In this document: in pieces, positions 54,937 to 55,041 of the stretch
How positions within the stretch are numbered: position 1 is the stretch's first letter
Layout of the letters: every line of letters starts with the position of its first letter
NCBI RefSeq assembly: GCF_003334355.1
Contig: NZ_QOWP01000018.1
Origin: Escherichia coli
Lineage (GTDB): Bacteria > Pseudomonadota > Gammaproteobacteria > Enterobacterales > Enterobacteriaceae
Direction: 5' to 3' (one strand)
Length of the DNA: 64,000 bases
Position numbers and translations under genes: made by a program
Notes under the pieces: model-generated
Told to the model about the DNA's origin: nothing
Seen by the model: only the letters and a program-made list of their open reading frames with translations
Database searches by the model: none

Positions 54937-55041
54937 CTAGCGGGCATTAAAGAAATGAAAGTCAAAACTATTACGATGGGCAAACTTCATGATATGGGTT
55001 GTCCGCCTTATATGAGGCATTAAGCGGTTATTATTTTCCAT
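54937..55041 (-). CDS. speFL: Ornithine-sensing ribosome arrest leader peptide
   Basis: 34-codon ORF translated by hand: MENNNRLMPHIRRTTHIMKFAHRNSFDFHFFNAR; SD upstream; below the ORF-track length cutoff. Confidence 0.7.
   Translation of the reverse strand: MENNNRLMPHIRRTTHIMKFAHRNSFDFHFFNAR

Follow-up and report, generated by a model that had tools for sequence, protein, structure and literature searches.

Does a leader peptide that departs from its textbook version at two residues of the sensor still sense ornithine, and which of the two versions should be regarded as the departure? This is the question raised by the DNA whose first lines stand above, a stretch of 64,000 nucleotides from an Escherichia coli contig (NZ_QOWP01000018.1, assembly GCF_003334355.1) that I will call the window throughout. 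A sequence-only reading of it had reported a speFL arrest-peptide ORF at 54937-55041 with substitutions outside the HIRRxxH core, namely at positions 5 and 7 relative to a reference given as MENNSRTMPH..., and had considered ornithine-dependent stalling to be probably retained. In this article, I will argue from the comparison of sequences, and at a probability of roughly 90%, that the minus strand of this interval carries a working speFL, the leader ORF through which the speF-potE operon senses ornithine. As such it is a gene already annotated and known, and an ordinary one; what can be added to the known speFL is modest and comprises an allelic mosaic, the remnant of an ERIC repeat and a reversal of polarity in which K-12 becomes the odd allele, three subjects on which a literature search found nothing relevant.

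Identity of the reading frame

The coordinates given by the earlier reading were exact, and the strand, which it had left unstated, is minus: translation there gives the claimed 34 codons, preceded by the claimed Shine-Dalgarno sequence (Table 1), the plus strand of the same interval gives no sensible product on translation, and the mechanical ORF list carries the frame at 54937..55041 (-) as 34 aa from an ATG start. The distance to speF agrees as well, since 310 nt lie between the speFL stop and the speF ATG, and the figure of 311 that had been reported is reached if the count starts at the final stop-codon base and runs to the A of the ATG.

The Pfam family SpeFL (PF10940.13; PF10940/DUF2618) matches the window peptide over residues 7-33 with an i-Evalue of 2.2e-6, and when phmmer was run against the PDB, SpeFL was the sole match, aligned end to end (E=1.7e-18). 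RefSeq names the exact window peptide "leader peptide SpeFL" (WP_001312672.1), a label that identical DNA bears in thousands of genomes, and the 721-nt leader region is up to 100% identical to complete E. coli genomes. The NCBIfam profiles gave no match for the window peptide and none for the K-12 peptide either, so their silence is a gap in the library and not evidence against membership of SpeFL; a search of Rfam returned no family for the speFL leader. The peptide of a K-12-type laboratory strain, MENNSRTMPHIRRTTHIMKFAHRNSFDFHFFNAR, is likewise annotated as leader peptide SpeFL (WP_211180488.1), has the same sequence as the SpeFL chain of PDB 6TBV/6TC3 and equals the reference that the earlier reading had used. 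Aligned with it, the window peptide is identical at 32 of 34 residues and differs by S5N and T7L only, the same two positions that had been singled out, and the two ORFs differ at 15 nucleotides, 11 of these differences being synonymous; on sequence comparison, the window peptide is under clear purifying selection.

The gene order is kdpDE-speFL-speF-potE, with kdpE and kdpD upstream and, on the same strand, speF and potE downstream. Overlapping the start of speFL in another frame is a 44-aa ORF (window 55020-55154, minus strand; MIYYLGYDRFLLIFF...), which RefSeq carries in window-type genomes as hypothetical protein WP_001299172.1 and which, extending over the speFL promoter and 5' UTR, was probably called spuriously. 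The speFL-speF-potE cassette is flanked by a 145-nt direct repeat (window 50886-51030 and 55315-55459; 90% identical), one copy being the 3' end of kdpE and the other a kdpE-3' fragment downstream of potE that appears in K-12-type records as a wHTH pseudogene, and an exact repeat-to-repeat junction without the cassette occurs in 2 of 5,426 genomes (CUWW10 and GF4-3). An Rfam match to MicX downstream of potE (window 50924-51109, minus strand; 34 bits against a gathering score of 75) overlaps the kdpE-3' copy of the repeat and is probably not meaningful.

Table 1. Features of the speFL-speF-potE region of the window, in window coordinates
Feature	Position	Strand	Basis and remarks
speFL ORF	54937..55041	-	34 codons + UAG; encodes MENNNRLMPHIRRTTHIMKFAHRNSFDFHFFNAR; Pfam and RefSeq annotation of identical DNA
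speFL Shine-Dalgarno region GAGGTAAAGGTAA	55042..55054	-	GAGG 9 nt before ATG; read from sequence
HIRRTTH (HIRRXXH) ornithine-recognition motif, codons 10-16	54994..55014	-	Motif defined in bioRxiv 10.1101/604074
Consecutive rare Arg codons AGG CGG (R12, R13)	55003..55008	-	Same codons as K-12
CU-rich tract at 3' end of speFL, CUUUCAUUUCUUUAAU	54946..54961	-	Proposed rut/anti-SD segment; predicted pairing with speF RBS
Stop-codon hairpin GCCCGCUAGUC-UUCU-GACUAAAGGGC, RNA polymerase pause hairpin	54920..54945	-	Predicted, -15.8 kcal/mol
Pause element GGCACCCCAGCG	54911..54922	-	Fits consensus G-11 G-10 ... Y-1 G+1; K-12 has GGCACTTCAGCG there
'Downstream of stop' (DS) hairpin UACAGGU-UAAU-ACCUGUA	54868..54885	-	Predicted fold
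Internally deleted ERIC/IRU repeat, 54 nt, in speFL-speF spacer	54780..54833	-	Alignment to full ERIC between ppa and chpB
speF RBS and start codon AAAUAAAGAGAUGAACAAAAUG	54624..54645	-	Read from sequence
speF, inducible ornithine decarboxylase	52428..54626	-	732 aa from MSELK start (MSELKIAV..., ATG at 54626)
potE, putrescine-ornithine antiporter	51112..52431	-	ORF list and RefSeq annotation
Mosaic patch, ~955 nt	about 54361..55315	.	Sliding identity, difference positions, bimodality in 5,426 genomes

Sensor, effector and leader RNA

The residue-level description of SpeFL comes from cryo-EM, toeprinting and reporter work, all of it on the K-12 sequence (bioRxiv 10.1101/604074). According to that work, the ornithine pocket is lined by P9, R12 and R13, arrest requires H10, I11 and H16, and the effector core consists of F26, F28, F30 and F31, plus F20; E2 contacts uL4 and N3 contacts C796, no contacts are reported for residues 5 or 7, and deletion of residues 1-7 abolishes arrest (bioRxiv 10.1101/604074). 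All of the residues so implicated (E2, N3, P9, H10, I11, R12, R13, H16, F20, F26, F28, F30 and F31) are unchanged in the window peptide: the N-terminal MENNNRL (residues 1-7) is in place with both of its contact residues, P9 is followed by HIRRTTH (10-16) with R12 and R13, and the C-terminal effector domain KFAHRNSFDFHFFNAR equals residues 19-34 of the K-12 and PDB peptides, so that the HIRRTTH segment and the FFNAR C-terminus are as intact as the sequence-only reading had supposed. From this identity at all residues with a reported phenotype or contact, I infer that function is retained. Roles in the speF leader have also been assigned to Rho and to rare Arg codons (bioRxiv 10.1101/604074; PMC6386406), and AGGCGG is the commonest R12-R13 codon pair in the species survey described below (42 of 79 species).

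The concept of an anti-SD/rut tract was taken from the Salmonella speF leader (PMC6386406). In the window, the CU tract and the speF RBS pair with each other in the minimum free energy fold, the whole leader folds with a z of -4.1, and the tract itself is the family consensus in an alignment of 59 species. Across the same alignment, the helices of the stop hairpin are paired in 83% and 88% of cells and the DS hairpin in 89%, with 4 of the 7 DS pairs changing on both sides; between the two E. coli alleles, the closing pair of the DS hairpin is U-A in the window and C-G in K-12, a compensatory change. When the stop, mini and DS hairpins are taken together, 86% of cells are paired versus 25-41% with the partners slid, and both partners change in 8 of the pairs. 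RNAalifold's own consensus returned neither the stop nor the DS hairpin. That program proposes a helix of GGCAC with GUGCU (window about 54857-54862 with 54914-54922; alignment columns 59-61 and 71-73 with 135-140) that encloses the mini and DS hairpins and shows G-C/A-U covariation in 37 and 17 sequences; since this helix takes up the 3' arm of the stop hairpin, it may represent another conformer of the attenuator.

The pause consensus listed in Table 1 is the one cited for the K-12 leader (bioRxiv 10.1101/604074). From about +66 to +205 (80-nt windows), C stands at 28% versus G at 16-20%, similar to K-12, a composition that agrees with a rut site but alone is no demonstration of Rho loading. 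A promoter scan of the minus strand upstream of speFL found no sigma-70 consensus. The block around GGATAGAATA is kept between the window and K-12 alleles.

By homology with the K-12 and Salmonella work, the leader would operate as follows. RNA polymerase would pause at the hairpin spanning the speFL stop codon, and a ribosome translating speFL would melt that hairpin. At low ornithine, this ribosome would terminate at the UAG and depart, exposing the C-rich, G-poor 3' part of speFL, and Rho would bind and end transcription before speF; the speF RBS could also be sequestered by the same CU tract. When ornithine is high, one L-ornithine would be trapped in the exit tunnel by the nascent N-terminal sensor hairpin (residues 1-13, with the HIRRTTH loop) together with the 23S rRNA, the Phe-rich C-terminal domain would compact, and peptide release by RF1 would be blocked, whereupon the stalled ribosome and a queue slowed at AGG-CGG would cover the rut/anti-SD tract and speF-potE would be transcribed and translated. 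An ornithine-dependent stall at the UAG that masks the rut/anti-SD tract and prevents termination by Rho has been described (bioRxiv 10.1101/604074; PMC6386406), and ornithine induction through orf34 has been shown in S. Typhimurium (PMC6386406).

Residues 5 and 7 within and beyond E. coli

Alleles were counted in 5,426 complete E. coli genomes with the 105-nt ORF as blastn query, and the resulting distribution is cleanly bimodal: speFL of the window type (at least 99% identity) is present in 3,333 genomes, including O157:H7, O111:H- and O18:H1 strains, and the K-12 type (84.8-85.7% identity) in 1,704, including MG1655 and MC4100, with 7 intermediate and 382 without a match. speFL co-occurs with speF, the former being found in 5,044 and the body of the latter in about 5,045 of these genomes; about 380 lack speF altogether. 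On these counts, the window allele is the commonest natural SpeFL of E. coli and the textbook K-12 allele is the unusual one. The earlier description of the window form as carrying substitutions is right in that two residues differ from K-12, but the copy is not a deviant one; it is the K-12 allele that is atypical.

A further state of the gene is found in E. coli CFT073 (3995-4036 of the CFT073 locus), where an in-frame deletion of 63 nt inside speFL, between short direct repeats GGAAAATA, has left the remnant MENSFDFHFFNAR; the whole HIRRTTH sensor is lost, the stop hairpin and leader are intact, and RefSeq mislabels the remnant as a fragment of a TonB-dependent receptor. Partial speFL coverage of this kind occurs in at most 23 of the 5,426 genomes.

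To place the two residues in the wider family, one genome per GTDB species was surveyed with a degenerate coding pattern for HIRRTTHIM, giving 79 usable 34-codon speFL genes from Enterobacterales; residues 10-18 are invariant in this set by virtue of the search pattern, and their invariance is not independent evidence. Of these species, 61 have N at position 5 and 18 have S. No position of the SpeFL family varies more than position 7, which takes nine different residues in the 79 species (L 34, T 11, M 9, K 9, A 5, I 4, V 3, S 2, F 2). N5 and L7 are the commonest states at their positions, MENNNRLMP is the commonest N-terminus (30 of 79), and when 1.84 billion representative proteins were searched independently with phmmer, the N-termini returned were again mostly MENNNR.... 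The ORF is conserved across about 80 species, and wherever speF could be located in the species loci, speFL precedes it. The speFL loci of Salmonella subsp. arizonae and diarizonae carry N5 and F7, and N5 as read in these two subspecies, taken with ornithine induction via orf34 in S. Typhimurium (PMC6386406), supports the compatibility of N5 with function. S5N and T7L lie at the two naturally variable positions of the sensor hairpin, and I expect them to have no effect or no more than a modulatory one.

A mosaic patch and its ancestry

S5N and T7L are real differences, but they are not the isolated point changes that talk of substitutions implies, since they belong to a divergent, recombinant patch of ~955 nt. 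This patch spans the promoter region, speFL, the whole leader and codons 1-89 of speF, running from just after the kdpE stop (about 55315) to nt 266 of speF (54361). Identity to K-12 is 66-85% inside it (about 74% in the leader), 99-100% in the flanks and 98-100% over about 29 kb apart from the patch; the first 266 nt of speF contain 64 differences between window and K-12, with 21 amino-acid changes in SpeF residues 1-89, and the rest of speF (~1,930 nt) contains 2.

Both alleles were compared with E. albertii and with strain E69, which bears the title "E. coli" although GTDB makes it the representative of a separate species. Outside the patch, each allele shares 89-90% identity with these two genomes. 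Inside it, the window allele keeps its 89-90%, whereas the K-12 allele reaches only ~76%, and 72-74% with all other genera sampled. Since it tracks E. albertii inside and outside the patch alike, the window cassette looks like the vertically inherited Escherichia form. A useful correction concerns the textbook peptide and leader of K-12, which represent the minority allele and are probably xenologous, their cassette looking like an import from an unsampled lineage. K19 is common to both E. coli alleles and elsewhere in the surveyed set is found in Escherichia only, and, as far as these sequences go, this shared residue is not explained by a simple foreign import of the K-12 cassette. A MAG labelled Collinsella sp. 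has a speFL-speF region 100% identical to the K-12 type on a 2,225-nt contig, which is almost certainly E. coli contamination or mis-binning.

An ERIC remnant in the spacer

The spacer between speFL and speF is ~250-257 nt in most species (257 nt in K-12), 304-310 nt in the window, E. albertii and E69, and 366-381 nt in Salmonella and in some Citrobacter and Kluyvera. A gap of 51 columns in the alignment of the window with K-12 is due to the ERIC remnant of Table 1. ERIC/IRU repeats, reportedly described by Sharples and Lloyd in 1990 and by Hulton and colleagues in 1991, are ~127 bp in full, and the 54 nt found here consist of the left 14 nt and the right 40 nt of the element, matching the copy between ppa and chpB at 14/14 and 38/40 positions, respectively. 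Aligned to that full ERIC (1412-1540 of the comparison locus) were ACTCTAAATAATTC at the left end and AGTCGCAGCAxATGCAACTTGAAGxATGACGAGTATAGC at the right, and the central ~75 nt are missing (72 gap columns against the full-length copy), together with the ERIC1R/ERIC2 core (GTGAATCCCCAGGAGCTTAC...AAGTAAGTGACTGGGGTGAGCG). It is because this core is missing that the insert is filed as an internally deleted remnant and not as a full ERIC. The K-12 allele is without the remnant, and E. albertii and E69 hold decayed copies of it. The same remnant accounts for an Rfam match to isrH at 54782-54838, which with E=0.003 stays below the gathering score.

In the long spacers of Citrobacter, Kluyvera and Salmonella, independent insertions of about 120-125 nt occupy the DS-hairpin loop; those of Citrobacter and Kluyvera are clear full-length ERIC/IRU elements, and that of Salmonella, at the same site, is degenerate. 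The window remnant lies ~35 nt further downstream than these DS-loop insertions. The 'ring-like', RNase G-sensitive region of the Salmonella leader may therefore derive from an ERIC element, a type of repeat that the orf34 paper does not mention (PMC6386406).

Do the two cassettes behave alike?

Granted a working SpeFL, induction of speF by the window cassette could nevertheless differ from that by the K-12 cassette in threshold, basal level or dynamic range, which would make regulatory variants of distinct function out of the two E. coli alleles. This reading draws on N5/L7, the ERIC remnant, a 12-bp anti-SD pairing, different promoter-proximal DNA and the 21 changes in SpeF 1-89, and I consider it possible if rather doubtful. 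The patch is sharply bounded as well as divergent, and both alleles are frequent with almost no intermediates. The duplex of the CU tract with the speF RBS is predicted at -12.4 kcal/mol in the window versus -7.0 in K-12, and the ERIC remnant is predicted to fold as a hairpin of its own (-15.8 kcal/mol) where the ring-like region of Salmonella would be, an RNase E-mediated effect of ERIC elements on the stability of mRNA having been reported (PMC3184786). Given the divergence of the leader, the remnant and the stronger anti-SD pairing, quantitative behaviour may thus differ from that of K-12. However, every element with an assigned function is conserved in both alleles, the CU tract and N-terminus of the window are plain family consensus, and the energies are predictions, not measurements.

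The proposal can be widened to hold that E. coli carries two divergent, non-intergrading cassettes, the native one and the imported one of K-12, which differ in the ornithine/arginine responsiveness of putrescine synthesis, and in that form it strikes me as unlikely. If it were true, K-12 conclusions would not transfer quantitatively to most pathogenic E. coli; a difference in output would bear on the tuning of acid/ornithine-responsive putrescine synthesis in these pathogens and would provide a clean natural case of regulatory-region replacement by recombination. No experimental characterisation of the window form, which is that of O157:H7, O111 and many clinical isolates, was found in the literature searched.

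It is very improbable that S5N, T7L or both break the sensor hairpin, so that ornithine sensing is lost and speF is left under the control of leader RNA structure and ORF translation only. The N-terminal hairpin is required, as the deletion of residues 1-7 demonstrates (bioRxiv 10.1101/604074), so S5N or T7L could still have an effect on sensitivity, and the natural sensorless allele of CFT073 indicates that loss of the sensor is tolerated in some lineages. However, the two residues in question are the commonest ones among the 79 species in a peptide under purifying selection, N5 also stands in Salmonella loci and ornithine induces through orf34 in S. Typhimurium (PMC6386406), and it is the contacting residues E2 and N3, as opposed to positions 5 and 7, for which no contact is reported, that are conserved. 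Finally, the notion that the ORF is a chance frame or dead relic, in favour of which only its small size can be cited, is refuted by conservation and synteny, namely the Pfam match, the position before speF in about 80 species, the synonymous excess, the solved structure of a near-identical peptide and the co-occurrence with speF, and its probability is negligible.

Comparison with known systems

Read as a functional, ornithine-sensing speFL, the window gene can be set beside three regulators and one repeat family. K-12 SpeFL (YbfK; PDB 6TBV/6TC3; Herrero del Valle et al., bioRxiv 10.1101/604074) has the same length and the same kdpE-speFL-speF-potE locus; the window differs from it in carrying N5/L7 and not S5/T7, in a spacer of 310 nt and not 257 nt on account of the ERIC remnant, and in an anti-SD tract that is predicted to pair better with the speF RBS. 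Compared with ERIC/IRU repeats in general, the window insert has both ends of the element without the central core. Salmonella orf34 (Ben-Zvi et al., 2019; PMC6386406) resembles the window in being a 34-codon uORF before speF with N5 and rare Arg codons, and in its stop-codon hairpin, DS hairpin, CU-rich anti-SD/rut tract and insertion-lengthened leader, although the Salmonella loci examined differ by F7, M19 and an insertion of ~120 nt in the loop of the DS hairpin.

The tryptophan-sensing TnaC of the tna operon follows the same logic, in which a ligand-dependent block of the release factor at the leader stop masks a rut site and prevents termination by Rho, and the comparison of SpeFL with TnaC was already made in the K-12 work (bioRxiv 10.1101/604074). 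TnaC is nonetheless unlike SpeFL in its unrelated sequence, in its ligand and binding site, and in its use of RF2 at UGA where SpeFL uses RF1 at UAG.
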